DNA of 64,000 nucleotides from a plasmid. Below, piece after piece: positions 24,856 through 50,210 of the stretch; position 1 is the first letter of the stretch; the number at the start of each line of letters is the position of its first letter. The position numbers and the translations under genes are program-made. The stretch lies in the sequence record NZ_CP044066.1; one strand, 5' to 3'. The notes under the pieces were generated by a model, which worked only from the letters and a program-made list of their open reading frames with translations, had not been told where the DNA came from and did no database searches.

Positions 24856-25296
24856 CTACCTTGCGCCGATCTGCTTGCGGAAGCGATTTAAGCGCTTAAT
24901 GTACCCCTCGCATCCGCCCAAGTTCCCTTCGTATTGACCTCGCATGATGCGGTCGTTTTCATCGACCTCCATCGTTACCGAGCAGTTGTAATTCACTGGC
25001 ACATAGGACGTACTGTAGGTGGTGGAAGAATAGTTGCCATATGCGCGCCCTACGTTGACGTTGCCGTAGGTTGTAGAGGGCGTTGTCACTGGGACGAACC
25101 CAGAGCTGGATCGACCCCATTGGATGTACCGGCGGCCGGAGATAGTTCTTTCGCCGCTTGGCATACCGAACACGTTGATGGCATCGTCGAGCGGTCTGCC
25201 CTGGAGCGCATTCATGCCCTTGTCGAATTGACCCCAAGTGGCGCAGCCGCCTAAAAGCAACGCACCCAAGCCCACACAAAGCGTTATTGTTCTCAC
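24856..25296 (-). CDS. lipoprotein (LGGC lipobox)
   Basis: MRTITLCVGLGALLLGGCATW.. A paralogous fragment lies at 31352-31478. Confidence 0.5.
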   Translation of the reverse strand: MRTITLCVGLGALLLGGCATWGQFDKGMNALQGRPLDDAINVFGMPSGERTISGRRYIQWGRSSSGFVPVTTPSTTYGNVNVGRAYGNYSSTTYSTSYVPVNYNCSVTMEVDENDRIMRGQYEGNLGGCEGYIKRLNRFRKQIGAR

Positions 25297-25739
25297 TACC
25301 CATCCCCTGTAAGCCTTCTTCTACGGTGCGGTTCTCGGCGGCGGAGATGTCTCCGCGTACCGCATTTTACGGGGGTGAGTTGCTGTGGAATCCCCCTGCT
25401 TTGGTGGGGAGTGACAAGATCGTATCGCCTCAATCTGGTGGGAGCATGCCTGCAAAGTCAGATAACTAACCTAGCGACGAGCTGATCGATGCCGCCCTAA
25501 AGCGAGTCCTTTTTGCGATGGAGAGTGGGTCGCGCGCCGGGCGCGAGGGTATTCTCGTGGATCAGTTCGTTTCTCTCCTTGCAACGAAGGCGATTCGCAA
25601 AGCCGAGCGGGACGCCTGTGAAATACTAGGGACGCGGTGCGAGCGCTTCGGAGATCTGTTCTGTGATATCCAAGCTATCGCTGAGTTTCTGCATCGATCG
25701 CCGAGAGGGCTGTTCAAGGTTCCGGGGTTTCCTTAGCCA

Positions 25740-26255
25740 GTGTGCCGCTGCACAGATCCAGCCGAATCGAGCGCCGTCCGATCAAGCATGCGGAGTTGGT
25801 GGCGCGCGTCGGATGTCATTGCGTGGGCTTATAGCTATCAGGAAGGCGTTAACCCAAGCCTGCGCGCGGAGGTTGAAGCTGAATTGCGGCAGGAGTGGTC
25901 CAGATGGACTATGCAGACTGCGGCAAGCGCAGTGGGCGCGAGGCGAGCGCTGCTGCGCGATTGCGGGAAGGCGGGTCGCAGCGGGGCAAGGGCGCCCGAC
26001 ATCCCCCATGCGCCGGCCGGCTGGATAGCCACAGGGCGATTGAGAATCACCGTTCGGTCTGGGCCCCGGGGCGACTTTCGAATCAGGGATGAGGGAACCA
26101 CAGTCGTCGAGGAACTCGTCGCAAAGCTTGTCTCATACATTGTTGACGCAATATCCGGCGCGCCCGAGCGTGAACGACAAGCTGCGGAGGCACGATCTGC
26201 GTACGAAGCGCAGCGCGAAGGCGACGCGCCTGGTGCGCCAGTGCGCGGTCGCTGA
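25740..26255 (+). CDS. hypothetical protein
   Basis: 171-aa ORF in a GC-rich region. Could be a shadow. No domain recognised. Confidence 0.2.
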   Translation: MCRCTDPAESSAVRSSMRSWWRASDVIAWAYSYQEGVNPSLRAEVEAELRQEWSRWTMQTAASAVGARRALLRDCGKAGRSGARAPDIPHAPAGWIATGRLRITVRSGPRGDFRIRDEGTTVVEELVAKLVSYIVDAISGAPERERQAAEARSAYEAQREGDAPGAPVRGR

Positions 26256-26632
26256 GTCGTCAGAATCGAATCGAACCCGGCGCGGCACGGCGCTATACCG
26301 CGCGCTCCCTGTAGTGCATTGGGCGTCGTGCTCGGCGGCGAGCGCGGCGCTTTCTTTTTGAATGGCATCCAACCAATGCTTCCTTGGCCCGCCCTTCAGA
26401 ATCTCCTGTCCACTGCTGAAAGGCGCAGGCCTACGAACGCCTCGCCGTCAAGGTGCTGATCAGAGGAATAAATCGCGGCGATTGCAACGGGTGCAGCAGC
26501 GAAGGCTTAAGCAGGAGATCAAATGCAGCCATCTATCGGCTGTGTATGAACATGCAACACGCTCGGCAGAGGGATTGACCAAGCTGCATGTGGGTTTTCA
26601 CAATGCGGCCATATCGACGGACAGGATTGAAA

Positions 26633-27121
26633 ATGACACCCGAACAGGCACAAGCCATCCTCCACGAATACCGACTCCGTATGAGAGAGGCTGCCGTGGC
26701 ATGGAGGCGGGTCCATGCCGACGAACACAGCGCTTGGACTTTTGAGACCGTCAAACATCTGGCCTTCGTGAACGCCGCCGGATTGGCAGGTGCTGCAGCG
26801 CTATATGCAGCCCCCGATCTTGGTAAGAAGATCGTGGGCCCGTGCAGTGTGCCCATTGCCCTGCTGTTTGCGATTGGCCTCGTGATGGCGGTAATCGACA
26901 TGTACCTCAACTCGCTCGGTGCTCTCGCCAGACTCAAAGAGCTAGACAGTCGGCTAAAGATTTGGGACATCCAGCCTCTTCCTGGTCAGATTGAGGCGGC
27001 TGAGCTGCTGAAAGATATCGAGCGTGGCAGCATTTTCTTTCGGTTCGCCGGATATGCCGGCTGGTGCTCAGCATTCCTTTTTCTGGCTGGCGTATATCCG
27101 CTTGCCTTCCTTCGCTTCTAG
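26633..27121 (+). CDS. hypothetical membrane protein
   Basis: Three hydrophobic segments (LAFVNAAGLAGAAALYAAP, PIALLFAIGLVMAVI, FAGYAGWCSAFLFLAGVYPLAFL). Confidence 0.4.
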   Translation: MTPEQAQAILHEYRLRMREAAVAWRRVHADEHSAWTFETVKHLAFVNAAGLAGAAALYAAPDLGKKIVGPCSVPIALLFAIGLVMAVIDMYLNSLGALARLKELDSRLKIWDIQPLPGQIEAAELLKDIERGSIFFRFAGYAGWCSAFLFLAGVYPLAFLRF

Positions 27122-27281
27122 TCAGCTCTACGGGGATGGCCAGGCCTCCACCGTCTTCCGATGCTTGGCGGCGCACTCTCCAAGCGCCCTCAATATGTCC
27201 CCCATTACCCGTTCCTGCCAGATGTCATAGTCGCGCTCGGCCGGCGGGTCCGATGGTCACCGGCACGGCGCGGCAAGCGCG

Positions 27282-27527
27282 TTATCGAGCGCCGGCGGCT
27301 TGCTTTGCTGCCTCGTAGGCGTCGGTGAGCTTGCGCACCCGCAGGTCATCAGGGCGGCAATCAGGAGGCAGTGGCTTCTTCGCATTTCGGAATTCCTTCA
27401 CGGCGGCGTCCACCTCGGCGCCGAGGGTGGTCTGCGCGACGCTGAACTCGTCAGCCTTCGCGCGGATCGTCGCGCCAGCATGCTGCAGATCCTCGAGCGA
27501 CCACTGCGCCGACGTAGGCTCGAACAT
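27282..27527 (-). CDS. hypothetical small protein
   Basis: 81-aa ORF. No domain. Confidence 0.25.
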   Translation of the reverse strand: MFEPTSAQWSLEDLQHAGATIRAKADEFSVAQTTLGAEVDAAVKEFRNAKKPLPPDCRPDDLRVRKLTDAYEAAKQAAGAR

Positions 27528-27770
27528 CAGCGGCGCGGCGCTAGGCCATCGCCTCGCGATAAAGCTGCCGCCGCCGAGCAGCCGCAGCGACCTCCGCCTG
27601 CCTCGCGTTTCGGCCGCGCGCTGCTGCTGTGCTTGCCGCTCGGCTTCGCGAGCACCTTGGTGTGCCGCAAAACACCCGAGACCGATAAGCCACGCCGGAG
27701 GCCTCCTGAGCTAGCTCTCGCACGGAGCTGGATTTTGGTCCATCGCGAATCTGCGAATTGATCCCACGCC

Positions 27771-28440
27771 TTACCGCTTAGTAAGCAACTCTGTGACGGA
27801 ATTTGGACTCATTCCTCCGACGAAATAGGCGCCGGTCGGTCCGCTTAGGCCCAAATCCCCAGTGGGCCCCGTTGCGCCCGCCGCACCCGGAGACCCATTT
27901 CGACCATCATCCCTGCAATAAGGTCTTGCGTCGGTACCGCGTCTGCCGCCTGGCCCCCCGTAGCCAGGGTCACCGCCATTGCCGGGGGGGGGGGACCTGC
28001 GGCTCCCCCCGCAATCTCCACCTTAAGTAGGCGCGAAGCGGCCGCCATGTTGTCCTCGCTGGTAAAGAGAGTAAAGGTACCGCCGCGGCCGCCTGATCCA
28101 CTTGGCCCCCCCTTTGCCGCCATTGCCGCCGGCCCCTCCGGGCCCACCGTCTCCGGCGCCTCTAGTGCAGTTCACAGCGTTCTGACTGGCGGGTGTGCCG
28201 TATCCGCCGCCGCCGCCTCTGCCGCCGGCTTGCCCTTTGCCTCCTGGTCCTCCATCTTGTCCTTTTGGTCAACCAGGAGGGGACCTTTAATGGAAAGGGC
28301 GGTAAGCGTCAAGGAGGGAGCATCACGCCCGGGCTGACCGGGATTCCCGAGTTTTCCGTCTTCTCCGCGCCCCTCTGCTACGGATTCTTCCGCTCCGTGG
28401 TCCGGCCCGGCACCGGCGCTTCCTGAGTCAGGCGGCGAAG
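27771..28440 (-). pseudogene. collagen-like (G-X-Y) / glycine-rich repeat protein gene, frameshifted at homopolymer tracts
   Basis: Minus-strand translation gives DDG-RNG-SPG-AAG-ATG-PTG-DLG-LSG-PTG..AYFVGGM* and upstream GPG-GKG-QAG-GRG-GGG-GYG, in different frames. Contains a G11 run (27984-27994) and a C7 run (28106-28112). Confidence 0.5.
27984..27994. repeat. G11 homopolymer inside the collagen-like gene
   Basis: gccgggggggggggacc. Confidence 0.8.
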
Positions 28441-28968
28441 GTGCTGCGCCGCGACTGATTCGGCACTACAGCCTTTCCGCGCGATAAGCCTGCCAGTAGG
28501 CGTGAGACTGCACGGCCGTGCCGGGAGAGTTTGCGAAACGATGAAGAGGCGCACCTGGCCGATGTTCCCGACCGTGACGATTACGTGGCGATGCTCAGGG
28601 CCCGGCGCCGATGGTGGCGGCAAGATCGCCATGCCTTGCGCGACGATGTCCCCGGGCACCTGAGCCAATATGCCGTTGTCGGTATCGGGTTCGCGCTGCG
28701 GTTGCCCCGACGACGCCTAGCAGCCTTGCGCCAGTTTGCTGTTGCCCATGATGCACACCACGTTACTGTATGGGCGCACAAGTATATCCGTGTCCAATAA
28801 GTGCCTGCGTGCGACCCGGAAAGCCAGACCCTACCGATGCCTTTTGCGTGCGCAGTTTCCTGGACGGGAAAGAAGCAAACCATTGCGCCACAAGGCTATT
28901 CGGGCCGCGCATGGCCCTGCATGCACTACACTTGTCGGTTGCAAGCTATAAAATTACGCTGCGGCAGT

Positions 28969-29781
28969 TCAGATCCTGACGGCAACTATCTCTAGGTGGC
29001 GCGACATCTCGCGCAAGACTTCGATGCCTCGGTCCGTCAACGTGTCCCCCCTCATATCGACTAATCCCGCAGCCTTCAGACCAGTGACAACTCCGCCGTT
29101 GACCTGGTCGGATCCTCTGGCGCGCGTCCAAATCCCTGGGGCAGGTTCCGAGTCTATGTCGATTCCCCGATTCGCATAGAGTACGTACGACATCATATAG
29201 ACCGAGCCAATGCTGACTCCGATAGCACGGGCGAGGTGACGAAGTTCGTCTTCGAGAGTGCGACCTGAGCGGACGGACCAATCGTAGTGCTGGCGTCCGA
29301 ATTCCTCTCCGTTGCATCGGGCGTCTACAACCGAGAGATCTAGCAAATCTAGAAGTCCCTCGCCGAAGGCGACAGTGTCGCTTTTTACGGTAATGTCTAG
29401 CGTCCCCCTCGCGCCACCGCTCGCAAACTGAGCATTCATATCCAACGCGCCGTCGTGTAGGAGGCCGTTACGATAGTATTTGTACAGGAGCCACGCCACA
29501 TCCCGTTGCTCTCCCTTCCAGGCAACGCTGACGCCGCTCTCACCGACCGTTCCACGATTCCGTCGCAAAAAAAGTATGTCGTTCAGTCGCCCGCCAATGA
29601 AAAGGCGGAAGGCTTCGCCGTCCCCCATTGTCTTCGTAGGTTCGGCGACGGAGGGGCTTTTGAGAGGAAAGCGTCGTCGTGACGACGCCGCAACGGCGAT
29701 CATATACATCGCAAGAGATGCAACCGGTCTACCCGCTGCCCTAAGAAATCTTGCATCATCGACACGATCTGCAATGGTCAT
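28969..29781 (-). CDS. hypothetical protein with HEPN-like R-N-x3-H motif (YRNGLLHDG)
   Basis: 270 aa. Co-oriented with, and 222 bp downstream of, gene 30004-31371. Confidence 0.45.
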   Translation of the reverse strand: MTIADRVDDARFLRAAGRPVASLAMYMIAVAASSRRRFPLKSPSVAEPTKTMGDGEAFRLFIGGRLNDILFLRRNRGTVGESGVSVAWKGEQRDVAWLLYKYYRNGLLHDGALDMNAQFASGGARGTLDITVKSDTVAFGEGLLDLLDLSVVDARCNGEEFGRQHYDWSVRSGRTLEDELRHLARAIGVSIGSVYMMSYVLYANRGIDIDSEPAPGIWTRARGSDQVNGGVVTGLKAAGLVDMRGDTLTDRGIEVLREMSRHLEIVAVRI

Positions 29782-30003
29782 GAGTTTCTTGTCCTGCCTA
29801 AGACTGTTTGCGGTGAGACAACTGAGATTGGATTGCGAGTCCCATCGAGAGGTCTTGCAGCGGCCGATGCGGAGATTTGTCCCGCGATTGGGGCGGCCTG
29901 CTCATGTCAGTGTACTCAACAAAAAAAGGGGCGCCGCGAGACGGCCGGCGCCAAAGACTTCAGGGACGAAGCGAGGCGAGTATCGCGCGAGGGGACGTGG
30001 GAT

Positions 30004-31371
30004 TCAATTCGAATCTGACGACGCAGAGTCCCGGGCGCCGAGCACCAGATCATCCCAATTAAAGTCTTTGGCCAAGATAACTGCTTGTATCGCATCTGCG
30101 CACAAGGCAATGCCGAGATCAAGCATGTCTATCACCTTCTTGAAGTCGCTAGGCTTCTTGGGGTTCGCCACGACGCCTGTATGTACTGCATTCGATCGAA
30201 ACTGATAAATACTCTTTAGTTGGGAAACTATCTCTCGACGCTCTTCCAGCGTGCGGCCAAGAAGCCATGCGCCACGCATCCGGAGTTGAAAGCCTAGCTG
30301 GGCCGGATCGGTCTTTCCTGAAAGGAACAGGGCTTCTAGGGCGATGCCTAAGTCGATTGCTCGATTCACAGGGCTCCGGTGGCGAATCGCCTCGTTTAAA
30401 CGGTGTAGTGGAACATCTAATTCTGCTCTTCTCTCTTGTGGCAGCGTGAAGTAGGCTTCAAAAGTGGGCCGCTTTGCAAGTAGGTCGTCGCGTGTGACAA
30501 CGGTTGTTGAGCTCACGCGAGTCTCCTCGATAGCAGAAGACCATGCGTGGCCGATGTGCCCCTTCAACAGGCTCTCGTCGACAAGCTCTGTGTAAGCTCG
30601 CCAGACAATAGGTGAAGAAGGTCCAACGATAGTGAGTAGAGTTGCAACTCGTTGAAGGAAAGTCAGTTCCTCTACTTCTTCGGGCGAGAGAGGCTTGACG
30701 TTATCGGCTGAAGGCGAGAACCTCGGTCTTGGCGAGGCGAAGCGATACAAGGCGGCCTTGGGGATTCGAGGTGCCTCTCGCAGATTGGCCGGTGCCCGCA
30801 TGTTAAACATGAACGCATCCTCGTCAGACTGGGCAGTTGCCACAAGCTCTCCCAGATTTGATTCGGGAACATCCGCGGGCGGCGCGATAAATACGCCGGG
30901 TAGTAGTTCGGTAGTTTCCGTGACCTCTATACCTCCCAGCAGACAGACTTCGATGCAGTCACTCGCGCATGGCGATAGAAATGCGTAGAGATCATCTATA
31001 GCTTGACTTGGTCCCTTCGTGAGTGCGCGCGCAATGATGGCCTGACCATACTGATGGGTGTCTATCATATGGTGCGACATTCCTCGATTGAACAGCATCG
31101 ATCTTGTCTGCGCGATCTCCGGAATCTCGGCAAGTGCGTTCAGAACGGTTTCGGGGCAATGGTGGTAGGACGGGAAACCGGGAAACATGGCGACAGCAGG
31201 CTCAGTGCTTTCGGCTATAGCGGCTTCCAGCAACCGCAGCAGCTTTTCTCGATATAGGTCCTTGGTCGTCATTGCTAAGTCCGCCGTGGGTGGGAGTAAA
31301 TTGCGTTCAGCTGGTACCAATCTGCTTTCGAAAGCGGTTGAGCGCTTGGATTTACAACTCGCATCCTCCAT
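30004..31371 (-). CDS. hypothetical 455-aa protein with C-terminal HEPN-like motif (..LKSIYQFRSNAVHTG..)
   Basis: No NTPase motifs. The C-terminal alpha-helical region carries R-x4-H followed by TG, typical of HEPN RNase domains (Abi/ApeA-like). Confidence 0.5.
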   Translation of the reverse strand: MEDASCKSKRSTAFESRLVPAERNLLPPTADLAMTTKDLYREKLLRLLEAAIAESTEPAVAMFPGFPSYHHCPETVLNALAEIPEIAQTRSMLFNRGMSHHMIDTHQYGQAIIARALTKGPSQAIDDLYAFLSPCASDCIEVCLLGGIEVTETTELLPGVFIAPPADVPESNLGELVATAQSDEDAFMFNMRAPANLREAPRIPKAALYRFASPRPRFSPSADNVKPLSPEEVEELTFLQRVATLLTIVGPSSPIVWRAYTELVDESLLKGHIGHAWSSAIEETRVSSTTVVTRDDLLAKRPTFEAYFTLPQERRAELDVPLHRLNEAIRHRSPVNRAIDLGIALEALFLSGKTDPAQLGFQLRMRGAWLLGRTLEERREIVSQLKSIYQFRSNAVHTGVVANPKKPSDFKKVIDMLDLGIALCADAIQAVILAKDFNWDDLVLGARDSASSDSN

Positions 31372-31545: not shown

Positions 31546-31785
31546 ACACTGTCCTGCTCGGCAACGCGCAGGAGTTCGGAGTGATCGACGTGGCCATACT
31601 GAGCATCATTCGACGCTGGCACCTGCGCGACCGGATCCCGCTTCGCGAGATCGCCAGGCGCTTGGGTATCTCCCGCAACATCGAGCGGCGCTATCTGCAT
31701 GCCGATGTCACGGTACGCGCCTATCCACCTCGGCACAGTCCGAGCAAGCACGACGGCCATGCCCCAAGCTCGCTGCGTTGACCTG

Positions 31786-32236
31786 CCCCCGGTCTTAGTA
31801 CGGCATGCGATTAGAGTCCGGGGTTAAAAACGCTGCCTTCCCCTGAGCTTGACCTGCTCCCCGTGTTTAGTACCGTGACGATGTAGAGTCCGTTCCCAGG
31901 AGGAGCGGTCATGAAGAAGCGATTCACCGAAGAACAGATTATCGGCGTGCTGAAGGAAGCCGAAGCGGGCCTGAGGCCCGCGGAGCTTTGCCGCAAACAC
32001 GGCATCTCGGAGGCCACCTACTCAACGGTCGGTTCCGCGACGAATGCCTGAACGAACACTGGTTTGTTTCGATGCGTCATGCCAAGACGCTGATTGAAGA
32101 TTGGCGCAATGAGTACAACACCGAGCGGCCTCATAGCTCGCTCGGCCACCTAACCTCTGCGCAATTCGCTCAGGGGAAGGCAGCGTTTTTTACCCCGGAC
32201 TCTAGTTGCGTTTCGTACTAAACCCCGGGGCAGGTC
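31786..32236 (+). mobile_element. IS3-family (IS407-like) remnant with large internal deletion
   Basis: Ends TGACCTGCcCC... at 31786 (an extra inverted right-end-like fragment), at 31849 (IRL) and at 32236 (IRR). OrfA N-terminus MKKRFTEEQIIGVLKEAEAGLRPAELCRKHGISEATY is joined to the OrfB C-terminus ..NGRFRDECLNEHWF..IEDWRNEYNTERPHSSLGHLTSAQFA. Confidence 0.7.
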
Positions 32237-32356
32237 ATATCTTGCCCAACGGCTTGTGATGCGCCCGGCGGACTTGCCGGCTTTAGAGGCTACTACCGAC
32301 CCTTGACGATAGTTTAAAGTTGTTCCCTGATTGGCCGAGTTAGGTCAAAAGTGACA

Positions 32357-33361
32357 TTATCTATATTGTTTTCGAGCTATATCTGAGCTGAAGGCGCTGG
32401 CCGCTATACCGGAGATGACTGGGTCAGCCCGAATCAGAATCAGAATACCGTCGGCCTCAGTTCCAAGATTATCGAAAAGCGCATATTTGTTGGCATATTC
32501 GATAAATGGCTCGCCCCGCTGAGTCATGCAGTTGTAAACAAGAAAAACGAGCTCTATCCAAGAAAGTTGAGCTCTAATGATTGCGATGTACTGCCACTTT
32601 TCTTCTCGACTAATTATCTTCGGGTCAGATTCGTCGACCCATTTGATTAGTCGGAACAGGGTACGAAACATTCCATCGAGCTGATATCGATGTCTGTCAA
32701 ATACCGTCTCGTACCCATCCCGTGCCATATTTATTGCTGTTTCCCGTTGATCTTTTGACCAGTTGGAGAAAAATAGTGGGTCTTGCGGGGTGGAAAGACT
32801 ACTCCTATGTCGGCGTTGAAAAGTCGGCAACTTTTTCCCTGACTTTGAATCCTTCAGGATAACTCGCGCTGCGGTAAAGGAGCCGACGTGCATGCGTTTG
32901 AGTGCATGTCGGCCGATATATATTTTTTCCGGGGCCTCGGCATTTTCATTGCTGATGGTTAGCTGAATACTATCCAAGAGCTTATGGTATGAATTCAGCC
33001 AAGAGAAAAAACTGTTTTCGAATCCCTGTTTTGCTAAGGCTTTGTTCGAGATTCGCAGCTCGCGTAGTGATGCCTGCAACTCGCGCCGTTGAAGCTTAAC
33101 TGTGACAAGCACTAAGTAAACGGTTGCTAAGCCAACTACCGGGTTGATTGTGCCACCGATAAAATCACCAAACTGCCCCCATGCTTCACCTTTCTCAGAA
33201 AATGGGAGACTAATAAAATTTAAGGCGTACGCGGCTACGACACTAATGGCGATGTATATGACGATTCGAAAGACTTCCGCCGCGGATTTGAGATCGTTCG
33301 ATCCATCCTCATCGTCCATCTCCGACAAAGTTGGAGCTCCGAATTCTCGGTCATTTTTCAT
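32357..33361 (-). CDS. putative abortive-infection membrane protein (putAbiC/PF16872-like), AT-rich foreign gene
   Basis: The gene is clearly lower in GC than its neighbours. N-terminal two-TM region ..FGDFIGGTINPVVGLATVYLVLVTVKLQRRE.. resembles Abi membrane anchors. Confidence 0.45.
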   Translation of the reverse strand: MKNDREFGAPTLSEMDDEDGSNDLKSAAEVFRIVIYIAISVVAAYALNFISLPFSEKGEAWGQFGDFIGGTINPVVGLATVYLVLVTVKLQRRELQASLRELRISNKALAKQGFENSFFSWLNSYHKLLDSIQLTISNENAEAPEKIYIGRHALKRMHVGSFTAARVILKDSKSGKKLPTFQRRHRSSLSTPQDPLFFSNWSKDQRETAINMARDGYETVFDRHRYQLDGMFRTLFRLIKWVDESDPKIISREEKWQYIAIIRAQLSWIELVFLVYNCMTQRGEPFIEYANKYALFDNLGTEADGILILIRADPVISGIAASAFSSDIARKQYR

Positions 33362-33776
33362 GTCGAGTATTTATGATTGAGTCGAGGCGAGAATATTGAC
33401 CGATGGTGAAGGCTCATACCCCGCTGAAGAGGGGGTGTACGGCTGATGCAAAGATTCTATTTCGGCGAGTGGTTGAATTAACCCACTATGCCAAAAAAAG
33501 CACGCGGCATATCATTCAACGGCTTGAGCGTCCGGACACCGCGTCACTATGGTCATGAGTTCTGCTACTGCTAGTCTTGCACCGCCTTCGCATACTACTG
33601 TTCCGACGAGAATGTGTCAGAACCCCCATTTCTACCAACGCCAGTCCACTTTGGGTCGGACTAGCTGCGGCTGATTGTTAACGTCTTTCGGCCGCTGGGG
33701 AAGGTGAAGCGTAACGGCTGTTCATGGCCGACGTGAGCCGGCCGAGCTAAGGATCGCTAATGGAGAAGCGATTCAA

Positions 33777-34093: not shown

Positions 34094-35593
34094 ATGGACT
34101 TTGATTGGAAGCAACGGACGAATCAGTATGTCCAAGCCAGGCGCCAGCATCCTGCCTGGCTGCTGCTCGCTGCGCGCAGCGCGCCTTTGGTGCTTAGCTG
34201 TCTTCAGACTCTTTTCGAAAAAGATCATGACGGCATTGCTATTGAAGAGGCAGAACTCGCGCTGGCCGCGATGCTTGAGGAGCATGCCAACGCAGAGGAG
34301 TTCGGAGTAGACCCCGAAGGGGACTTCGCGGGCCAAGCGCGGAAGGAATTGCGCGGCTGGATCCGACGCTCTCTCGTGATTGAGCGTGAAGGGCGAGTTT
34401 ACGCTACCGACGCCCTCGAGGAGGCACTCCGGTTTGTTGCGGCTCTCGGCGGTCGGCTTATGACATCGACGGCTTCCCGACTATCGATCGTGCAACGAGA
34501 GATTGAGAACCTCGAGTCGAGTCTTAACCCTGACCCCCGCACCAGAGAGAGATACCTTCAGCGCAAGATCCGGGACCTCGAGAGCGAGTTGCAAGACGTT
34601 CGTGCAGGCAATCTCAAGGTACTTAACCAGTCGGAGGCTGTTGAGGCGATCCGCGAAATTTATAGCCTCGCCACAAGCCTGCGTTCCGACTTCAGGCGGG
34701 TGGAGGACTCGTACCGAGAGGCGGACATGGCGCTGCGCCAATCCATTGTCAGCGAGCGCAGCCATCGTGGAGAGATTGTCGATAAGCTCCTCGATGGTCA
34801 TGACGAGTTGCTGGAGACCGCCGAGGGAAAGGTCTTTCGTGGCTTTCAGCAACAACTCGGCCGTACGGTAGAGTTGGATTTCATGAAGCATCGTCTGCGA
34901 TTGATTGTGAAACATCCAGCTACACGGTCTGCTCTGAATGCTCAACAGGAGAATGAACTCAGATGGCTCATCATTCGTCTGGTTGATGAATCTGCTGCTG
35001 TCATCCGTGCGCGGGCGCGCAGTGAGCGCGACGTCAAGGGTTTTCTCAGAACGGGCCTAGCCGCTGAACACCATCGCGTGGGAGATTTGCTTGGCGAAGT
35101 ATTCCAGCAGGCTTTGCTAGTCGACTGGAAGAGCGCGGCGGTACGGGGTGCAGATAGTCCTTTACCACCTGTTGGGTTGTCGCTAGGCGGATTGCCTGTG
35201 GTTGAACGCTTGCGCTTCAAAGTGTTTAGCGACGATGAGGGTGAGGCGCTCGAACTGAATGCCCAGCGTATGGACATAGCAGCGATTGACGACGAATTCT
35301 GGGATGCATTTGACGGACTTGACCGGCAAGCGCTCTGGGACAGCACGGTCGCATTGCTTTCCCAGCGCGGCGAGCGCTTGGCGATAAGTGAGTTGGCCTC
35401 ATCCCTGCCGCCGACACATGACCTTGAAACCATCGCACTCTGGCTAAGCATGGCCCGCCACGCCGATGCTCCGGTGGGGGTGAAGCGCGAGAGCGTCGAT
35501 GTCGAAGGGCATGATGGTCTGCTGCTTCGATTTGACGTGCCCATGATTGAACTCGGCATTGAGCATCTCCGCGACCTAGACATGGAGCTGTAG
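34094..35593 (+). CDS. jetA: Wadjet JetA (MksF-like kleisin, DUF3375)
   Basis: 500 aa from the ATG at 34094 (MDFDWKQRTNQYVQARRQHPAWLLLAARSAPLVLSCLQTLF..). Long coiled-coil, acidic C-terminus. First gene of a four-gene jetABCD operon. Confidence 0.75.
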   Translation: MDFDWKQRTNQYVQARRQHPAWLLLAARSAPLVLSCLQTLFEKDHDGIAIEEAELALAAMLEEHANAEEFGVDPEGDFAGQARKELRGWIRRSLVIEREGRVYATDALEEALRFVAALGGRLMTSTASRLSIVQREIENLESSLNPDPRTRERYLQRKIRDLESELQDVRAGNLKVLNQSEAVEAIREIYSLATSLRSDFRRVEDSYREADMALRQSIVSERSHRGEIVDKLLDGHDELLETAEGKVFRGFQQQLGRTVELDFMKHRLRLIVKHPATRSALNAQQENELRWLIIRLVDESAAVIRARARSERDVKGFLRTGLAAEHHRVGDLLGEVFQQALLVDWKSAAVRGADSPLPPVGLSLGGLPVVERLRFKVFSDDEGEALELNAQRMDIAAIDDEFWDAFDGLDRQALWDSTVALLSQRGERLAISELASSLPPTHDLETIALWLSMARHADAPVGVKRESVDVEGHDGLLLRFDVPMIELGIEHLRDLDMEL

Positions 35594-35596
35594 CAG

Positions 35597-36352
35597 ATGA
35601 GCATTTTCGACACCATTGCAGCGCGTGTGAGCGTTGACGAAGCGCCAGGTGATGGGGCTCTCTCTGCGCTGGTGGAACTGCAAACTACGCAGGCCGATAC
35701 AACACTCCAGGCTGACACAGGCTATACGCCGCGGGAGGTCAAGGATGCCTGCCAGGAGCTCCTTAAATATGGCCTGCTGGAAGTCGCGAGAAAGCCCAAC
35801 CTCTACCGGACGGCGCTGGCCAAGACGGCTGAGGTGAATCGCATCCTTGAACCCTTCGATCTCGTGGTCAAGATTGACGATATCAGGGGCTTGGCATACC
35901 TCATCGTTGCCCAACCGATCTTCGCGGAAGGCGAGGATGAATGGTCGCATCCTCTGGTAAGAAGGCAGCGACTGACGCTCGAGCAATCGTTAATGGTAGC
36001 TCTCCTTCGCCAGCAATATCTGATCTTCGAGCAGGAGCGGGGTGTCGGGGCGGCCGATGCGCCCATAGCGGTTGAGGACTTGGTACCGCAGTTGCAGATT
36101 TACCTCGGCAACCTCGGCAGTGATACGCGCGAGCTGCAGCGTGCCCGGACATTGCTGGAGAAGCTCAAGGTGCATGCCCTGGTTTCCGAGATCGATCAAC
36201 AAGACCAATTCGTCATCCGACCTATCATCGTGCATTTGGCCAACCCCGAAAGCCTCCAGGGTTTATTGACCGCGCTCAAAGACGTCGGGACCGCCGCGTC
36301 ACCGCGGGCAGACGACCCTGCCGCTGCATGCGTGCAAGAGGAAAATCGATGA
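35597..36352 (+). CDS. jetB: Wadjet JetB (MksE-like, DUF4194)
   Basis: 251 aa. Starts 4 nt after the jetA stop. Its stop overlaps the jetC start (ATGA at 36349-36352). Confidence 0.7.
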   Translation: MSIFDTIAARVSVDEAPGDGALSALVELQTTQADTTLQADTGYTPREVKDACQELLKYGLLEVARKPNLYRTALAKTAEVNRILEPFDLVVKIDDIRGLAYLIVAQPIFAEGEDEWSHPLVRRQRLTLEQSLMVALLRQQYLIFEQERGVGAADAPIAVEDLVPQLQIYLGNLGSDTRELQRARTLLEKLKVHALVSEIDQQDQFVIRPIIVHLANPESLQGLLTALKDVGTAASPRADDPAAACVQEENR

Positions 36353-39300
36353 CCTCGGTCGATTCGCACACCTCGATTGAGGCTCTGGTGCCCGACGCAG
36401 CCTTCGTGTTGACACGTTTGGATGTATTTAACTGGGGCCCGTTTGGTGGCCGTCACCAAGCCGAGATCGATATTGAAGGCACGGCGATTATCGGCCAGAC
36501 AGGTAGCGGAAAGACGACCCTCGTGGATGCGCTGATGACATTGATTGCCGCGCAACCGCGCTACAACTTGGCATCAACGGGCGGCCACGAGAGTGATCGT
36601 GATCTCGTGTCGTACGTGCGCGGTGTTTCGGGCGCTGGGCGAAGTGGTGAAACAGACCACATCGCGCGGCCAGGCAAGACTGTTTCGGGCATCTCGGCGA
36701 CTTTTGCCAATGGCAGCCGCACCGTGACCATCGCGGGGATCTTTGCCCTCGACGGCACCGGTTCATCAGCGACAGATCTCGACCGCGTTTGGCTCATCTC
36801 CAAAGCGGCGGAGTCGGACCTCGACGAGTGGTTGGAAACAATGCATGCCGGTGGCAAGCGTGCGCTCCGGCAGCTCGAGCGAGATATTGCCGAACTGCGC
36901 ATCTATGACAGTAAGAAGGCATATGTAGCGGAATTGCGTCGCTATTTCGAAGTGGGCGAGAATGCCTTCACGTTGTTGAACCGCGCGGCGGGCCTCAAGC
37001 AGCTCAACAGCATCGACGAGTTGTTCAGGGAACTCGTCTTGGATGACCGCGCGGCATTTCAGCGAGCTCAGGAGGTCGCATCTGAGTTTGATGATCTGGC
37101 GGCAATTCGCGAGGAGCTTGCCATTGCCCGCAAGCAGCGAGATTCCCTCCTGCCCATCCAGAAAAGTTGGGATCAACGCATCGAAGCAGCGGCAGCGCTC
37201 GACTTGCATCGACAACTTGCCGCCATACTTCCTGTGTCAGTGGCAATCCGAGGGCACAGGCTCTGGGCGGAAGTTGAGCGTCGCCTTGGGGAGGAGCTTG
37301 AGAGTTGCAATGCACAAGTGGCTTCGCTCACTGCTCGCGTGCGTGGACTTGAAAGCGATGCAGAGCACCAACGTGATCTGTACATTCAAAGTGGAGGGGC
37401 AAACGTCGAACTCTTGGAGCAGACAATCGACGCTGCGCGAGGACGCTACGAAATCGTCAGGCGCAATGCTCAGGACTACGCTCGGATGACGGCATCGCTT
37501 CAGCAGGTACCAGCCAGCACGCAGGACGATTTCATCGCTGATCAGGCGAGGTTGAGAACTCAGGCCAGCGATGATGAGGCGTCGCGGATCGATCTTGAGA
37601 ATCAGGCATTTGCTGCCGGGGCCATGGTGACTTCGACACGAGCATTGCGAGGCGAGCGGGAGCGTTCTCTATCGGAAGCCCAAGCAAGGCCCGGCTCCAA
37701 TGTGCCCATCCCGTATCAGAAGTTTCGCCTGGAGCTCGCAGACCACCTGAATCTGCATGAAGCGTCGCTACCATATGTCGCTGAGCTTGTGCAGGTGCAG
37801 GAGAAGCAAGCGCATTGGCGGGGCGCGATTGAGCGTGCCATTGGTGGTCACCGACTGCGAATTTTGGTGCGGGTTGACCACATACGCGAGGCGCTTGCTT
37901 GGGTGAACGGACGCGACAACAAGATCCATGTGCGGTTGATTAAAGTCGCCGGGACGGAGCGCCCTGCGCCTGCGTTTGAAAACGGATTCACACGAAAGCT
38001 AAATTTCAAAGAGCATCCGTACCAAGACGCGGTACGAGCGCTCCTGGTCGGGTTCGACCGACATTGCGTTGCCTCCCCGGAGGCATTACGCGAAACGCCG
38101 CACGGCATGACGGCCCAAGGTTTGATGTCGGGCAAAGACGGGCTCTTCGAGAAGCAGGATCTCAAGCCGCTCAACGAAGGCTGGCTTACCGGCTTCGACA
38201 ACAGCGATAGCGTCGCTGCGCTAGAGCGAGATCTCGAAGAGGTTCTGCGGGATCTGAAGACACAGGAGGCGCAGTTGGAGGTGGCACGTGCCCGGGTCAG
38301 CACGGCGACCGCACGCAAAGCTACACGGGAGCGACTATTGTCCTTGACGTTCGAGGACATCGACGTTGTCCACGTGAAGACAGCGCTCGATCGGGCGCTT
38401 GCGCAATTGGCTGCGCTTACAAGTGCGCATTCGGATACGACGCAAGCGAAAAAGCAGTGGGAAGCCACTAAGCAAGAACTCGAGAAGACGAGGAGCGAAC
38501 GAGACGATAGTCTTGGTGTTCAGGGCAATCTGATATTAGGACAGAAGAACGCGTCGACCGATCGACAGCGCATGTTCGCACTGATTGGTGAGGGCCTTGA
38601 TGCAACGCAAATGGCGTTGGCCCAGGAACATTTTGACCTAGAACGTATTGGTACTATCGAGGACCTTCAGCACCGCCACGCGAAAATTGCGGGGGACTTG
38701 CATCAGCAAGTGGAGCAGCTTACCAAGAGGATTACGGAACTCGAGAGGCAACTGGTACGCGGCATGGGGGCGGCCCAGACGATTGATACGGGGGCGCTTG
38801 CAGAAGTCGGTACAGACCTCGAGGATGTCCCGCACTACCTCGCGCGCCTCAAGATCTTGATTGAAGAGGCGCTGCCAGAGAAGCAGGATCGATTCATCAG
38901 CTATCTGAACCAGTCGTCTGATGAAGGCGTCACGCAACTGCTGCGGAGCATCGACAACGAAGTGGAGACGATCACCGAGCGAATCGCTGACCTCAATGAC
39001 ACGATGCGCAGAGTGAATTTCCAACATGATCGATATCTCAGGCTCGAGCCAAGGCGGGTCGTCCATGAAAGCTTACGCACCCTTGAGCAGGCCCAACGCC
39101 ATCTGCGCTCTACGATGTTGGTGGATGATCTGGGAGAGAGCCAATTTGCCGCGTTGTCGCGAATTGTGGCGTTGCTCAAGGAAGCTGCCGAGCGGCGTAC
39201 GACCGTGGGATCCCGCGCGCTGCTCGATCCGCGCTACAGACTTCAGTTTTCTGTCTCAGTCATTGCGCGCGGGTCCGGAGAGGTTGTTGAAACGCGTACC

Positions 39301-39672
39301 GGATCTCAAGGCGGTAGTGGCGGCGAGAAAGAGATCATCGCGAGCTATATTCTCACCGCGTCTCTCAGCTACGCCCTATGTCCTGAAGGCAAGGATCGAC
39401 CGCTCTTCGGCACGATCGTTCTGGACGAGGCATTCTCAAAGAGCTCACAGGCAGTGGCGGGACGCATCATTTCTGCGCTCCGTGAGTTCGGGCTACATCC
39501 GCTTTTTGTGACGCCGAACAAGGAGATGCGTTTGCTGCGTGCGCATACACGCTCTGCCGTGCTGGTTCACCGGCGCGGCTTACAGGCGACGATGACCTCG
39601 TTAAGTTGGGAGGAGTTGGACACGTTCGCCAAAGCAAGGCAACAGGCGGATCGGGATGAAGTCGCCAGTTGA
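36349..39672 (+). CDS. jetC: Wadjet JetC (MksB-like SMC-family ATPase)
   Basis: N-terminal Walker A GQTGSGKTT. About 800 aa of coiled coil. C-terminal signature ..GSQGGSGGEKE.. and Walker B ..TIVLDEAFSK... RBS AGAGGAAAA before the ATG. Confidence 0.9.
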   Translation: MTSVDSHTSIEALVPDAAFVLTRLDVFNWGPFGGRHQAEIDIEGTAIIGQTGSGKTTLVDALMTLIAAQPRYNLASTGGHESDRDLVSYVRGVSGAGRSGETDHIARPGKTVSGISATFANGSRTVTIAGIFALDGTGSSATDLDRVWLISKAAESDLDEWLETMHAGGKRALRQLERDIAELRIYDSKKAYVAELRRYFEVGENAFTLLNRAAGLKQLNSIDELFRELVLDDRAAFQRAQEVASEFDDLAAIREELAIARKQRDSLLPIQKSWDQRIEAAAALDLHRQLAAILPVSVAIRGHRLWAEVERRLGEELESCNAQVASLTARVRGLESDAEHQRDLYIQSGGANVELLEQTIDAARGRYEIVRRNAQDYARMTASLQQVPASTQDDFIADQARLRTQASDDEASRIDLENQAFAAGAMVTSTRALRGERERSLSEAQARPGSNVPIPYQKFRLELADHLNLHEASLPYVAELVQVQEKQAHWRGAIERAIGGHRLRILVRVDHIREALAWVNGRDNKIHVRLIKVAGTERPAPAFENGFTRKLNFKEHPYQDAVRALLVGFDRHCVASPEALRETPHGMTAQGLMSGKDGLFEKQDLKPLNEGWLTGFDNSDSVAALERDLEEVLRDLKTQEAQLEVARARVSTATARKATRERLLSLTFEDIDVVHVKTALDRALAQLAALTSAHSDTTQAKKQWEATKQELEKTRSERDDSLGVQGNLILGQKNASTDRQRMFALIGEGLDATQMALAQEHFDLERIGTIEDLQHRHAKIAGDLHQQVEQLTKRITELERQLVRGMGAAQTIDTGALAEVGTDLEDVPHYLARLKILIEEALPEKQDRFISYLNQSSDEGVTQLLRSIDNEVETITERIADLNDTMRRVNFQHDRYLRLEPRRVVHESLRTLEQAQRHLRSTMLVDDLGESQFAALSRIVALLKEAAERRTTVGSRALLDPRYRLQFSVSVIARGSGEVVETRTGSQGGSGGEKEIIASYILTASLSYALCPEGKDRPLFGTIVLDEAFSKSSQAVAGRIISALREFGLHPLFVTPNKEMRLLRAHTRSAVLVHRRGLQATMTSLSWEELDTFAKARQQADRDEVAS

Positions 39673-40819
39673 ACTGGGTGCGCGGCTGGCACGAGCTTGG
39701 CAGTCTGCCGAGACGCGTGTGGCGCGCTTGCTAAGCGCCGATGCCTGGCCCATTCGTCTTGCGATCGGGCGGCCTGACGCCAAGACGTTCAGCAGCGACA
39801 CGCTCGCAGTGAAGCAGCACATCGAGCTCTGGCGTAGTGTGGAAGTAGGGGTGGTCCAATGGGAGACGGTGACATATCGTGCGGGCCGAGAGCCAGTTGA
39901 GATCCCCCGATACTGGGAAATCAGAACGCCGACGGAATGGGTGGGCGCCGCGGCGGATGAGACCATTCTCCGTGAGTTTCAGCGCTTGGGTGAGGCCGTA
40001 CAGCGTCTTGATGCAGACTTCCATGCATTGGTGGTACGTCAACGGCGATGGGCGGTAGAGTTATCCGAAGAGGAACTGGCCAAGGTCGGGGAGGTCGCAT
40101 TGACGCTTGGGCGAGGCATGGCGGCAGGGCGTCCGATCCGCGCGATAGCTGTATGCGGTATCGATAGCAAGTTCATTGAGCGTAATCGCACGCTCTTGTG
40201 CCAGATGCTCGATCTTCGTTTTGACGGCCTTGTGTCTGAAATAGGTCTCGAAGCATTCTTGGGCGCGATCGACGAGGATGATCGGTGGTTATTGGTTGTG
40301 CCACTGACTGCCGGAATCTTGCCTTTTCGCCAGCAACGCATTCGTGCCAGTGAGCTTGAGGGACTGCCGGGTACCGTGAAACACGTGGTGATTGTGGAGA
40401 ACGAACGAGCGCTATATCAGCTTCCGACTTTGCCGCATGCAGTGGCGATCCTTGGCGCAGGCCTGAGCTTGAATTGGGTGCGGGATCCGTGGTTGGATGG
40501 CAAACGGGTGGCCTATTGGGGGGATATGGATACCTGGGGCCTTACCATGCTGGCAACAGTGAGACGAGCCATACCCGATTTGGCCTCCATATTGATGGCC
40601 AAGCAATGCTTCGATAGGTATTCGGAGCTGTCCGTACGAGAACCCGTACCTGCTGGTGACAGCGTCCCTGCGGGTCTGACGATGTCGGAGGCTGAGTTCT
40701 ATCAATTCCTGCTTCTGCAGGAGCGAGGCCGGCTGGAACAGGAATTCCTCCCATCGGACGCGGTGCATACTGCTTTCTGGCAGTGGTACGGCGGCGAGAG
40801 CAACGGAGTGGGCTCCTGA
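39656..40819 (+). CDS. jetD: Wadjet JetD (MksG-like, DUF3322 + Toprim/DUF2220 nuclease)
   Basis: 387 aa. Toprim motifs ..HVVIVENERALYQL.. (catalytic E) and ..VAYWGDMDTWGL.. (DxD). Overlaps the jetC end by 17 nt. Confidence 0.85.
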   Translation: MKSPVELGARLARAWQSAETRVARLLSADAWPIRLAIGRPDAKTFSSDTLAVKQHIELWRSVEVGVVQWETVTYRAGREPVEIPRYWEIRTPTEWVGAAADETILREFQRLGEAVQRLDADFHALVVRQRRWAVELSEEELAKVGEVALTLGRGMAAGRPIRAIAVCGIDSKFIERNRTLLCQMLDLRFDGLVSEIGLEAFLGAIDEDDRWLLVVPLTAGILPFRQQRIRASELEGLPGTVKHVVIVENERALYQLPTLPHAVAILGAGLSLNWVRDPWLDGKRVAYWGDMDTWGLTMLATVRRAIPDLASILMAKQCFDRYSELSVREPVPAGDSVPAGLTMSEAEFYQFLLLQERGRLEQEFLPSDAVHTAFWQWYGGESNGVGS

Positions 40820-41321
40820 TAGTATTCTGTCCAAAGAAGGCCGTAGGGCATCGTTTCGTGAGGGTGCCGAGTGTGCTCGTTCATTGCGGAGTCGGAATCG
40901 CTTTTCAATCCGGCCCATCCGAACGCCATCAAGGCATCATGAAGCTGTGGGCGCGGTGCATGGCCCGCGCAACATCTGGTTACTCTCGGAGTCCGGGCTT
41001 AGATTTTTATAGGCTGTAGATTAGTTCGCGATGAAAACTGAGGCATCCCCAAGGATGCATTCGATCCGTGCGTATCCAAAGTGGCCCTTAACGGGTTTCC
41101 ATTCTTGATTCAGTGGGTTTCTCCCGCCCTTCCGGAGAACCTTATTCCACGAGGCCTCGCGGTGCGGGTTGCACGCGTCTCCCACACGGGTAGCTTCTAT
41201 CGCAACGCCTTGACGACTCGGGTACACCCTTCGAAAAATTATTAAGGCTCGCTCGCTTATAGATTCGTTGTCGCATGCGTGCTAGATTTGTCAGCTTTGA
41301 TGCGTTAAGTTGAGGTCTCCT

Positions 41322-42620
41322 ATGCTGGGCGATTTAGACGAGCTAGTGTTGCGGTGTCGTAATGAAAGAGCTCGTGTCCATATTGGTGAAGCGGTCACGG
41401 CCTATAAGGCTGGAGCGTACCGCTCGGCCGTCATTATGACTTGGGTGGCCCTTGCTTTCGATATTGTAGACAAACTTAAAGAGCTATCGATTAACGGCGA
41501 TGCCGCGGCAACAAAGACGATTGAAGAATACGAGCGCATACATAAAGACGGTGATATCTCCGCCTCACTAAAATTCGAGCGATCGCTTTTAGTCGTAGCG
41601 AAGAAGGATTTCGAGCTTTTCTCCGATTCTGAGTTGATCGAACTGGAGAGAATTCAGGAAGACAGAAACCGCTGTGCGCACCCGTCTCACAATATGGAAG
41701 GAGAGCCTTTTGCGCCGTCAGCCGAGCTTGCTCGCGCGCATATACGCGCTGCCATAGACTATGTGATGAAGAACGAGCCTGCTCAGGGTAGGCACGCGCT
41801 AGACATGGTCATGAAAATGCTCACGGGCGACTACTTTCCAACGAACCGTCGTAAGGCTTTCGAAGCGCTTGCTCACAGCCCTTTAATGACTGGGCGACAA
41901 TCGCTTGTCCGGGCTTTTTTGGTGGTTGTGTTGAAAGACTTGTTACGCGGCGCGGTGGAGAGTCGTAAGAGAGCCAAGTACATCAATGGCCTTTGGTTCG
42001 TTAAAGAGAAGCGCCCCGATTTGTGGCAATTGCTCTTCAACAACGAGTTCTCAGCCCTATCCAAGTCCCTTGATATTAAGGAGCACGGCGAGCGACTTCT
42101 GCTCATCTTGGCCCGCTTGCGGGATGGCTGGGGTGCCTTGTCGCCGGGAATCCGGGCCGGCTTAGTGCTGCTGGTACAGTCTCTGCCGGAGACCTCCATT
42201 GTGGACGTCGACGAGATTCTCCCATTGCCTGAGCTTCGGACGGCTGCCGTGACTCGGATAAAGAAGTTGTCTGCGGAGGATATCTCTCACATGCTTTTAG
42301 TGGAGGACATACCCGTTGAGATCGTTGATCATATTGTAGATTCCCTCTGCGCTGCAAAGAGTTACGCATCGGCAAACGGTTGGGTTGAGGCACTCGTCTC
42401 CGCATTATGGGCCGACTACGCGGCACTAACGCAGACGCACGCCGATCGCATCCTCGATTCAGTGATGAACAACCGACAGCTGAGAGACTGCGGCAAGCTA
42501 GATCAGCTCTTGAAATTCATTGCTAACCGCAGGTTTGGGCATGGTGTGAGGTGGAATAAAGTACTTGTGGCCACGGAGCGTGATCCATCAAACTACACGG
42601 CGCGAGACTCAGAAAAATAA
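41322..42620 (+). CDS. HEPN-domain (DUF4145/Swt1-like) protein with large C-terminal domain of unknown function; candidate defence effector
   Basis: N-terminus ..EAVTAYKAGAYRSAVIMTWVALAFDIVDKL.. then ..LIELERIQEDRNRCAHPSHN.. (R-N-x2-A-H HEPN motif). The tool ORF starts at TTG 41310, and the first ATG is 41322. AT-rich 5' flank. Confidence 0.55.
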   Translation: MLGDLDELVLRCRNERARVHIGEAVTAYKAGAYRSAVIMTWVALAFDIVDKLKELSINGDAAATKTIEEYERIHKDGDISASLKFERSLLVVAKKDFELFSDSELIELERIQEDRNRCAHPSHNMEGEPFAPSAELARAHIRAAIDYVMKNEPAQGRHALDMVMKMLTGDYFPTNRRKAFEALAHSPLMTGRQSLVRAFLVVVLKDLLRGAVESRKRAKYINGLWFVKEKRPDLWQLLFNNEFSALSKSLDIKEHGERLLLILARLRDGWGALSPGIRAGLVLLVQSLPETSIVDVDEILPLPELRTAAVTRIKKLSAEDISHMLLVEDIPVEIVDHIVDSLCAAKSYASANGWVEALVSALWADYAALTQTHADRILDSVMNNRQLRDCGKLDQLLKFIANRRFGHGVRWNKVLVATERDPSNYTARDSEK

Positions 42621-49272: not shown

Positions 49273-49743
49273 TTGCCGGAGCCTGTCATGCGAACCATCG
49301 CCTTTCACCCATCAGGCGCTCAGGCGCCTTATGAACGCTACCTCGAAGACTTGAGTGCTTTTTTGAGCACTAAGGTGCGCGGCGGCGCCGATCTGGCGAC
49401 GTTGGCGAGTGACAGGCTGCCGGCAGAGACACTCGAGCGTCTGCTCGAGACGGGTCTCTCGTGGGACGAAGTCGCCTTCATCATTCCCCGGCGGACGCTG
49501 AGTCATCGTCGGGAGAAGGGCCAACCGCTGACGGTGGAGGAATCAGACAAAGCCATTCGGCTGGCTCGGATTCTTGCCCTGGCGGTGAACACGTTCGGTG
49601 ATGTCGAGCGCGGATTGAACTGGTTGCGTCAAAAGCAGCAGCGGCTCGGCGGGATGGCGCCGTTGTCTCTGGCTGGGACCGAGCAAGGGGCGCATCTCGT
49701 CGAGGAGCAACTCGTGCAAATCGACGAAGGGTACTTTGCCTGA
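49273..49743 (+). CDS. Xre/ParS(MbcA)-type antitoxin (DUF2384) of RES-Xre toxin-antitoxin
   Basis: 156 aa. Stop/start overlap with the downstream RES toxin (..TGATGA..). Confidence 0.65.
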   Translation: MPEPVMRTIAFHPSGAQAPYERYLEDLSAFLSTKVRGGADLATLASDRLPAETLERLLETGLSWDEVAFIIPRRTLSHRREKGQPLTVEESDKAIRLARILALAVNTFGDVERGLNWLRQKQQRLGGMAPLSLAGTEQGAHLVEEQLVQIDEGYFA

Positions 49744-50210
49744 TGATCCTTTGGCGAATCAGCAACTACGCGGATCTCAAAGGCGTCGGTGGACTGCGCG
49801 CAGGAGGACGATGGCATTTCCCCGGTCAGCCGGTTGTGTATCTTGCAGAACACCCTGCGCTTGCGCTCCTTGAGGTGTTAGTTCACCACGAGCTCTCGAG
49901 AATCGAGGATCTGCCGAGAAACTACCAGCTCTTGAAAGTCGAGGTTGATGACGCCATCGCGGTCGCTAGCATTGCGGACCTGCCGGCAGACTGGAAGCAG
50001 AACGCCGGCTGGTCGAAGAATGCCGGCACGGAATGGCTGTCCGTCCGATCCAGTCTGCTCCTGAAGGTGCCGAGCGTCCTAGTGCCTTACGCGTCGAATT
50101 ACGTTTTTAACCCATCGCATCCGGATGCGGAGAAGGCTCGCATCCTCGAGGCCGAGCGCGTCGAGCATGATCCGCGCATCCTTTCACTGCTCTCTGAGCC
50201 GCGGGCATGA
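49743..50210 (+). CDS. RES-domain toxin (ParT/MbcT-like NAD+-targeting)
   Basis: ..GGRWHFPGQPVVYLAEHPALALLEVLVH.. with R-E-S signature residues. 155 aa. Confidence 0.85.
   Translation: MILWRISNYADLKGVGGLRAGGRWHFPGQPVVYLAEHPALALLEVLVHHELSRIEDLPRNYQLLKVEVDDAIAVASIADLPADWKQNAGWSKNAGTEWLSVRSSLLLKVPSVLVPYASNYVFNPSHPDAEKARILEAERVEHDPRILSLLSEPRA

Follow-up and report, generated by a model that had tools for sequence, protein, structure and literature searches.

A very probably intact type I Wadjet (JetABCD) anti-plasmid operon on a 249-kb plasmid of Cupriavidus pauculus

We analysed a stretch of 64,000 nucleotides (the window) from the plasmid record NZ_CP044066.1 and describe here the four-gene operon jetABCD that occupies positions 34094-40819 of its plus strand. 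The locus is, with high confidence, an intact type I Wadjet (JetABCD) anti-plasmid system. It is an uncharacterised member of a well-understood family and can be called by PADLOC or DefenseFinder. The assignment is supported by which genes are present and in what order, by their intact reading frames and homology over the full length, and by the conserved ATPase and nuclease residues.

The operon consists of four consecutive, co-oriented open reading frames (ORFs) that run through the region with no internal stops, as seen in the ORF listing and the translations. The jetA gene (34094-35593, 499 residues) encodes a kleisin-like subunit, jetB (35597-36352, 251 residues) a KITE/MukE-like subunit, jetC (36349-39672, 1107 residues) an SMC/MukB-like ATPase, and jetD (39656-40819, 387 residues) the Toprim nuclease subunit. 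A gap of only 3 nucleotides separates jetA from jetB. At the next junction, jetB and jetC overlap by the 4 nucleotides ATGA, which contain both the ATG start codon of jetC and the stop codon of jetB, and jetC and jetD overlap by 17 nucleotides. An original prediction, made from the letters of the DNA alone, had described the tight packing of the four genes, the translational coupling at the last two junctions and the lengths of JetB and JetD, all of which the ORF listing and the translations bear out; the five sequence motifs that it quoted are likewise all present in the translations. Its lengths of 500 residues for JetA and 1108 for JetC need correction to 499 and 1107, the stop codons having apparently been counted. 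An in-frame ATG at 33914, used by some automatic calls in the Logan assemblies, would give a JetA of 559 residues; we rejected this start since the 60 extra residues have no counterpart in the homologues. We place the start at 34094 because the PADLOC model (covered from 1 to 499 of 499), the JetA chains in the PDB and the NCBI call agree on it. The GC fraction is 0.57-0.59 over the operon; much of the surrounding DNA has 0.60-0.64, and a dip to 0.50-0.55 lies at 30-34 kb.

All four proteins are matched over their full length by the PADLOC type I Wadjet models, and with E-values from 1e-25 to 0 the Pfam and PADLOC matches lie far beyond chance. JetA matches Pfam DUF3375 (PF11855) with an E-value of 6.5e-96 (residues 15-485 of the protein on positions 2-472 of the 474 in the model) and PADLOC JetA1 (PDLC00452) with 782.6 bits over residues 1-499 of 499. 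JetB matches the whole of DUF4194 (PF13835; model 1-165 of 165, E 7.7e-25) and JetB1 (PDLC00480, 324.7 bits). In JetC, the two Pfam matches lie at opposite ends of the protein, AAA_29 at residues 22-79 and SbcC_Walker_B at residues 958-1046, while JetC1 (PDLC00511, 1422.1 bits) spans residues 8-1101. JetD is divided into an N-terminal, CAP-like DUF3322 domain (PF11795, residues 5-186, E 1e-34) and, at the C-terminus, a Toprim domain, JetD_C (PF09983, formerly DUF2220; residues 206-372, E 8e-40), and matches JetD1 (PDLC00532) with 521.8 bits. Thus DUF3375, DUF4194 and DUF2220/DUF3322, which had been proposed as the profiles to look for, each came out as predicted. The strong PADLOC matches are all to type I; for types II and III, the only match is to the type II model JetC2 with an E-value of 1.9e-05 and 20.8 bits.

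These searches also bear on a different explanation, in which the four genes form a housekeeping condensin of the MksBEF or MukBEF type that organises or segregates the replicon and contains no defence nuclease. JetABC does resemble MukBEF: the MukBEF and MksBEF condensins share its SMC-kleisin-KITE architecture and its dimer-of-dimers organisation (PMC10586767), and on a large, low-copy replicon that carries a ParA gene (190-903) a role in segregation is imaginable. However, the four proteins match none of the Pfam families MukB, MukE and MukF at the reporting threshold of E <= 0.01, and the NCBIfam collection, which holds no models naming JetA, JetB or JetD, returned no condensin model. Instead, type I Wadjet profiles and structures are matched along the full length of each of the four proteins, and the fourth gene of the operon, whose Toprim catalytic residues are intact, is translationally coupled to jetC, whereas the MukBEF and MksBEF condensins have no Toprim nuclease partner. 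We therefore rejected the condensin explanation, which is very improbable given the missing MukB/E/F matches and the coupled Toprim gene. The Wadjet identity put forward in the original prediction holds, as no assignment to MukBEF or MksBEF was obtained and a Toprim-encoding jetD overlaps jetC.

The residues expected of an active ATPase and nuclease are found in JetC and JetD. In JetC, the Walker A motif GQTGSGKTT lies at residues 49-57 (36493-36519, plus strand), the ABC signature GGSGGEKE at residues 988-995 (39310-39333, plus strand) and the Walker B motif LDEAF, with Asp1026 and Glu1027, at residues 1025-1029 (39421-39435, plus strand). In JetD, the acidic Toprim motif IVENE, with the catalytic Glu248, occupies residues 246-250 (40391-40405, plus strand), and the DxD motif YWGDMDTWG, with Asp290 and Asp292, occupies residues 287-295 (40514-40540, plus strand). 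We compared these positions in a homologue sample obtained by scanning one genome per species, which gave 80 loci with JetD relatives at 40-64% identity. Among 72 JetC homologues, Gly49 and Thr51-Thr57 of Walker A (including Lys55), Ser990-Glu995 of the signature and the entire LDEAF motif are invariant, and none of these JetC motifs served as a pattern for collecting the loci. Among the 80 JetD homologues, Glu248 and Asn249 are invariant in a region that likewise supplied no collection pattern. The YWGDMDTWG motif with Asp290 and Asp292 is also invariant in all 80, an invariance that is partly due to ascertainment, since YWGDMDTW was among the peptide patterns that gathered the loci. The same nine residues are present in PDB entry 7til_A, and 8q72_M differs by a single residue (YWGDMDSWG). 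Glu248 aligns with the site of the E248A substitution in the nuclease-dead Escherichia coli JetD of PDB entry 8q72, where it bears the same residue number.

The top PDB matches of all four proteins are the type I JetABCD systems of Pseudomonas aeruginosa PA14 and E. coli GF4-3. JetA matches 8dk1_A with an E-value of 2.4e-176 and 8q72_E with 5.6e-166, and JetB matches 8dk1_E with 3e-69. JetC aligns with an E-value of 0, in one uninterrupted alignment of residues 18-1101 to residues 29-1113 of 8dk2_C (1067 bits), and scores 1062 bits against 8as8_A. This single alignment indicates that the heads, the coiled-coil arms and the hinge are all conserved. JetD matches 7til_A with an E-value of 4.6e-110 and 46% identity, and 8q72_M with 2.4e-103 and 45% identity. 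The PA14 system (8dk1, 8dk2, 8dk3 and 7til) has the same four subunits, gene order and domain composition and the same Walker A, signature, Walker B and Toprim E/DxD motifs, and its subunits align over their full length with 590 bits for JetA, 236 for JetB, 1067 for JetC and 371 for JetD. The GF4-3 system (8as8, 8bfn, 8q72 and 9qxr-9qxx) has the same architecture, with 556, 215, 1062 and 349 bits, respectively. Unlike both, the operon described here is plasmid-borne in a betaproteobacterial host, Cupriavidus, and is known from its sequence, at moderate identity to either system; measurements of the limit of ~100 kb and of how linear DNA escapes come from the E. coli and Bacillus systems. MksBEFG of Corynebacterium glutamicum likewise pairs an SMC-like complex with a Toprim nuclease and is a system of the same kind, from an actinobacterial lineage; its MksG (PDB entry 8b7f) is a distant homologue of JetD, with an E-value of 2e-15 and 59.8 bits compared with 371 bits for the PA14 JetD.

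Homology to the PA14 and GF4-3 systems suggests how the complex would act. JetA as the kleisin, JetB as the KITE subunit and JetC as the SMC ATPase would assemble into a dimer-of-dimers motor that loads on DNA and extrudes loops driven by ATP. On a small closed circle, the two motors would draw in the entire molecule, come to a stall against one another and bend the last unextruded segment; a dimer of the JetD Toprim subunit would then bind the bent segment and cut it, so that the plasmid would be linearised and lost. Chromosomes and very large replicons would be spared, being incompletely extruded, and the system would probably shield host and megaplasmid alike from incoming plasmids of smaller size. 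This scheme draws on published work on the two closest biochemically characterised systems. Cleavage requires ATP and the SMC ATPase, restriction is abolished by a Toprim E-to-A mutation in JetD, and it covers circular DNA of up to ~100 kb and is evaded by a linear plasmid (10.1101/2022.10.04.510915). In single-molecule experiments, a 44-kb plasmid is fully extruded, after which stalling and then cleavage follow (PMC10889018). A U-shaped piece of residual DNA is entrapped by the stalled motors, and the binding of JetD kinks it into the substrate for cleavage (10.1101/2023.11.03.565488). By analogy, expression, assembly, loop extrusion, cleavage and a size threshold are predicted for Cupriavidus.

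The operon belongs to a widely distributed group. The closest JetD relatives among the 80 loci are in Burkholderia, Paraburkholderia and Cupriavidus, and others are in Pseudomonas, Lysobacter, Halomonas, Yersinia and further taxa. With the window proteins as tblastn queries, all four genes are found in about 75 of the 80 loci, and the jetA-B-C-D order and spacing are kept where the flank suffices. In Yersinia pestis NCTC5923 (NZ_UAVH01000008.1; L014), a JetD relative is accompanied by only the C-terminal ~443 residues of JetC, and tblastn detected neither jetA nor jetB within 10 kb upstream; the Wadjet locus of Y. pestis is probably disrupted. All four jet genes are present in Y. similis (L015). 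The four proteins of the window are exact matches to QET03913-QET03916 (WP_150373978-81), encoded on a plasmid-labelled sequence of 249,232 bp from Cupriavidus pauculus, with JetA corresponding to QET03913.1 and WP_150373978.1, and an identical locus occurs in four further sequencing-run assemblies. Another C. pauculus assembly contains a 325-residue 'DUF3375 family protein', WP_404990801.1, in the same 90%-identity cluster as JetA, which suggests a truncated jetA, and possibly decay of Wadjet, in a sister strain. The expectation that older annotations would have missed the system is borne out by GenBank, where the proteins are named DUF3375, DUF4194, AAA family ATPase and, for JetD, 'hypothetical protein FOB72_17260', but not by RefSeq, which already names JetD 'Wadjet anti-phage system protein JetD domain-containing protein'. 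Current annotation thus hides the system only in part.

Several observations weigh against an intact, active system. First, the activity of this operon would follow from homology, and the threshold of ~100 kb comes from measurements in B. subtilis and E. coli, hosts other than Cupriavidus (10.1101/2022.10.04.510915). Second, there are two minor deviations from conserved motifs. Position 50 in Walker A of JetC is a glutamine, where 57 of the 72 homologues have a proline. An IFDR motif at the N-terminus of JetB is reported to contact JetD (PMC10586767), and in the N-terminal MSIFDT of the present JetB the IFD part is kept, with threonine in place of arginine; I/V-F-D is retained across 45 JetB homologues, 27 of which have arginine at the fourth position, nine glutamine and three threonine. 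Third, a scan for promoter consensus sequences around the operon stayed at background level, with four found and 2.7 expected, and the 730-bp region upstream of jetA carries debris derived from insertion sequences (ISs), so that expression of the operon could be altered or silent. The corresponding scan for terminators was also at background level.

The debris upstream of jetA includes an N-terminal fragment of an IS21 istA-like gene (31581-31781) and an internally deleted IS3-type element, extending up to 32237, in which the start of orfA (MKKRFTEEQIIGVLKEAEAG) is joined to the C-terminus of orfB. The IS3-type element is bounded by 70-nucleotide inverted repeats (31779-31848 and 32168-32237) that are 87% complementary. 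A 26-nucleotide copy of the orfA start recurs at 33750-33775, 344 nucleotides upstream of jetA, and may affect the Wadjet promoter. These remnants, 350-2500 nucleotides upstream of jetA, lend some weight to the explanation that the operon is intact but silent or non-functional, a passenger acquired not long ago, with its promoter disrupted, in an island riddled with ISs. The lack of a promoter match above background points the same way, and the 325-residue JetA of the other C. pauculus strain suggests that decay can occur. On the other hand, the four frames are full length and free of stops and frameshifts, every catalytic residue is conserved, and the locus is identical in four independent sequencing runs. 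A silent or non-functional operon is accordingly unlikely, and an intact Wadjet system remains the reading that we favour.

An anti-plasmid system carried by a plasmid appears paradoxical at first look, and the size of the carrier would answer this. At 249 kb, the plasmid is ~2.5 times larger than the published target limit of ~100 kb, so self-tolerance should need no special mechanism and the carrier replicon is expected to be treated as 'self'. Plasmid-encoded Wadjet operons have been noted earlier (PMC10586767), and we surveyed the PLSDB collection for others. A megablast search with the operon gave no match in PLSDB, showing that the source plasmid is outside that collection. A tblastn search with JetD against its 72,556 plasmids gave 10 records at E <= 1e-20, all of at least 0.52 Mb, and 49 records at E <= 1e-3, of which 47 are at least 186 kb. 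The PLSDB carriers of the clade in which JetD is at least 59% identical are all Ralstonia megaplasmids of at least 1.75 Mb. The two small exceptions are plasmids of Sphaerotilus sulfidivorans (NZ_CP035707.1, 59,773 bp) and Stenotrophomonas maltophilia (NZ_CP090424.1, 42,189 bp), whose JetD homologues are 26-28% identical. Both lie under the Wadjet target limit of ~100 kb although they carry JetD homologues, and the JetD match in NZ_CP035707.1 adjoins an annotated SbcC/MukB-like gene. The size pattern is weakly consistent with size-based self-tolerance, given that large plasmids hold more genes, that 38 of the 49 records are Ralstonia megaplasmids, that a single-sequence tblastn search is insensitive and that some actinobacterial replicons may be linear.

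The same survey is relevant to who benefits from the system. In an alternative that leaves the mechanism unchanged, Wadjet would mainly serve the megaplasmid, as a weapon of inter-plasmid competition against smaller plasmids that are co-resident or incoming. The operon is plasmid-borne, its neighbours are addiction and defence modules, and JetD-like genes in PLSDB are almost confined to replicons of at least 186 kb (47 of 49), which would themselves escape cleavage. The neighbours in question begin with an AbiC-like abortive-infection gene (32357-33361, minus strand), divergent from and upstream of jetA, which matches Pfam putAbiC with an E-value of 3e-15 and PADLOC AbiC with 1.7e-08. Directly downstream of jetD is a PD-T7-3-like gene of 436 residues (41310-42620, plus strand), whose N-terminal 160 residues only are matched by PADLOC PD-T7-3 (E 8e-26); no Pfam or NCBIfam family was found for this gene beyond a weak AF_1680 note, and its product may be a variant of PD-T7-3 whose C-terminal domain differs. 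Together with Wadjet, these two genes make up a small defence cluster. Further to the right are two adjoining type II toxin-antitoxin pairs, an Xre-family antitoxin with a RES toxin (49273-50210) and a MazE-like antitoxin with a PemK/MazF toxin (50448-51037). We considered the AbiC-like and PD-T7-3-like genes as accessory genes of Wadjet and rejected this, as both sit beside the operon in the identical Cupriavidus contigs alone, and at none of the 80 loci of other taxa is either gene found with it; not being conserved beside Wadjet elsewhere, they appear to be independent genes. Service to the megaplasmid is indistinguishable from host defence by sequence, the size survey has the weaknesses described above, and plasmids of 42 and 60 kb carry distant JetD homologues. 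We regard a main role in inter-plasmid competition as a credible possibility that falls short of being probable. A further suggestion, which we hold more tentatively still, is that the 249-kb plasmid is the smallest examined replicon with this type I clade (JetD at least 59% identical) and, if the system is active, would set a natural ceiling in vivo for the size of targets in Cupriavidus, with a circle of 249 kb being tolerated, and would provide a case of a megaplasmid that uses an SMC nuclease against smaller plasmids.

The rest of the window points to a mosaic composition. To the left, a full-length primary sigma factor of the RpoD type (7378-9396, minus strand, 672 residues) contains regions 1.1 to 4 and the non-essential region. 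It matches the NCBIfam RpoD equivalog with 785 bits (cut-off 555) and the defence-associated MzaA sigma model with 450 bits, which is below the cut-off of 800. For the housekeeping sigma factor, a paralogue carried on a plasmid is unusual. The left part also contains CheB, LuxR-type and AraC-type regulators. Two tyrosine recombinase genes follow, one with DUF3701 and Phage_integrase domains (20888-22777, minus strand) and one with an Arm-DNA-binding domain (23095-24069, plus strand). A degenerate partial copy of the first (18324-19074) lies 2.7 kb to its left and is 76-87% identical, and the recombinase genes with this copy suggest successive integration events. A search for att-like direct repeats around an island extending from the recombinases at ~21-24 kb to the toxin-antitoxin and IS region at ~51 kb gave only short repeats at chance level, so the boundaries of an island cannot be defined from them. 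The interval from the recombinases to the defence cluster contains ~7 kb of orphan ORFs (24273-31371) with no Pfam, PADLOC or NCBIfam match; these ORFs, among them one of 270 residues (28969-29781, minus strand) and one of 455 residues (30004-31371, minus strand), are candidates for uncharacterised defence or mobile-element genes. To the right, the window contains autotransporter, OmpA-family and lactonase-like genes, an IstB fragment, an H-NS-like gene, a hybrid histidine kinase and a KaiC-like ATPase. Near its end, an ISNCY-family transposase gene (62433-63890; NCBIfam 505 bits, cut-off 250) has an imperfect direct repeat of 52 nucleotides on either side (62321-62372 and 63930-63981). Scans of the window for tRNA genes and Rfam families found none. 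The region is a mosaic, horizontally assembled part of the megaplasmid.

The significance of the locus is practical, not conceptual, and the system is not new in kind, as plasmid-borne Wadjet is already in the literature (PMC10586767). Names at the GenBank level (DUF, AAA, hypothetical) hide it. It is mildly unusual in one respect only, that a 249-kb plasmid carries it; this location fits a model in which self and non-self are distinguished by measuring size and could be a natural test case for it. Carrying the operon, this C. pauculus strain or any other host of the megaplasmid is predicted to resist transformation and conjugation with ordinary small circular vectors. This would be relevant to genetic work in Cupriavidus and to plasmid traffic in this opportunistic, metal-resistant genus.

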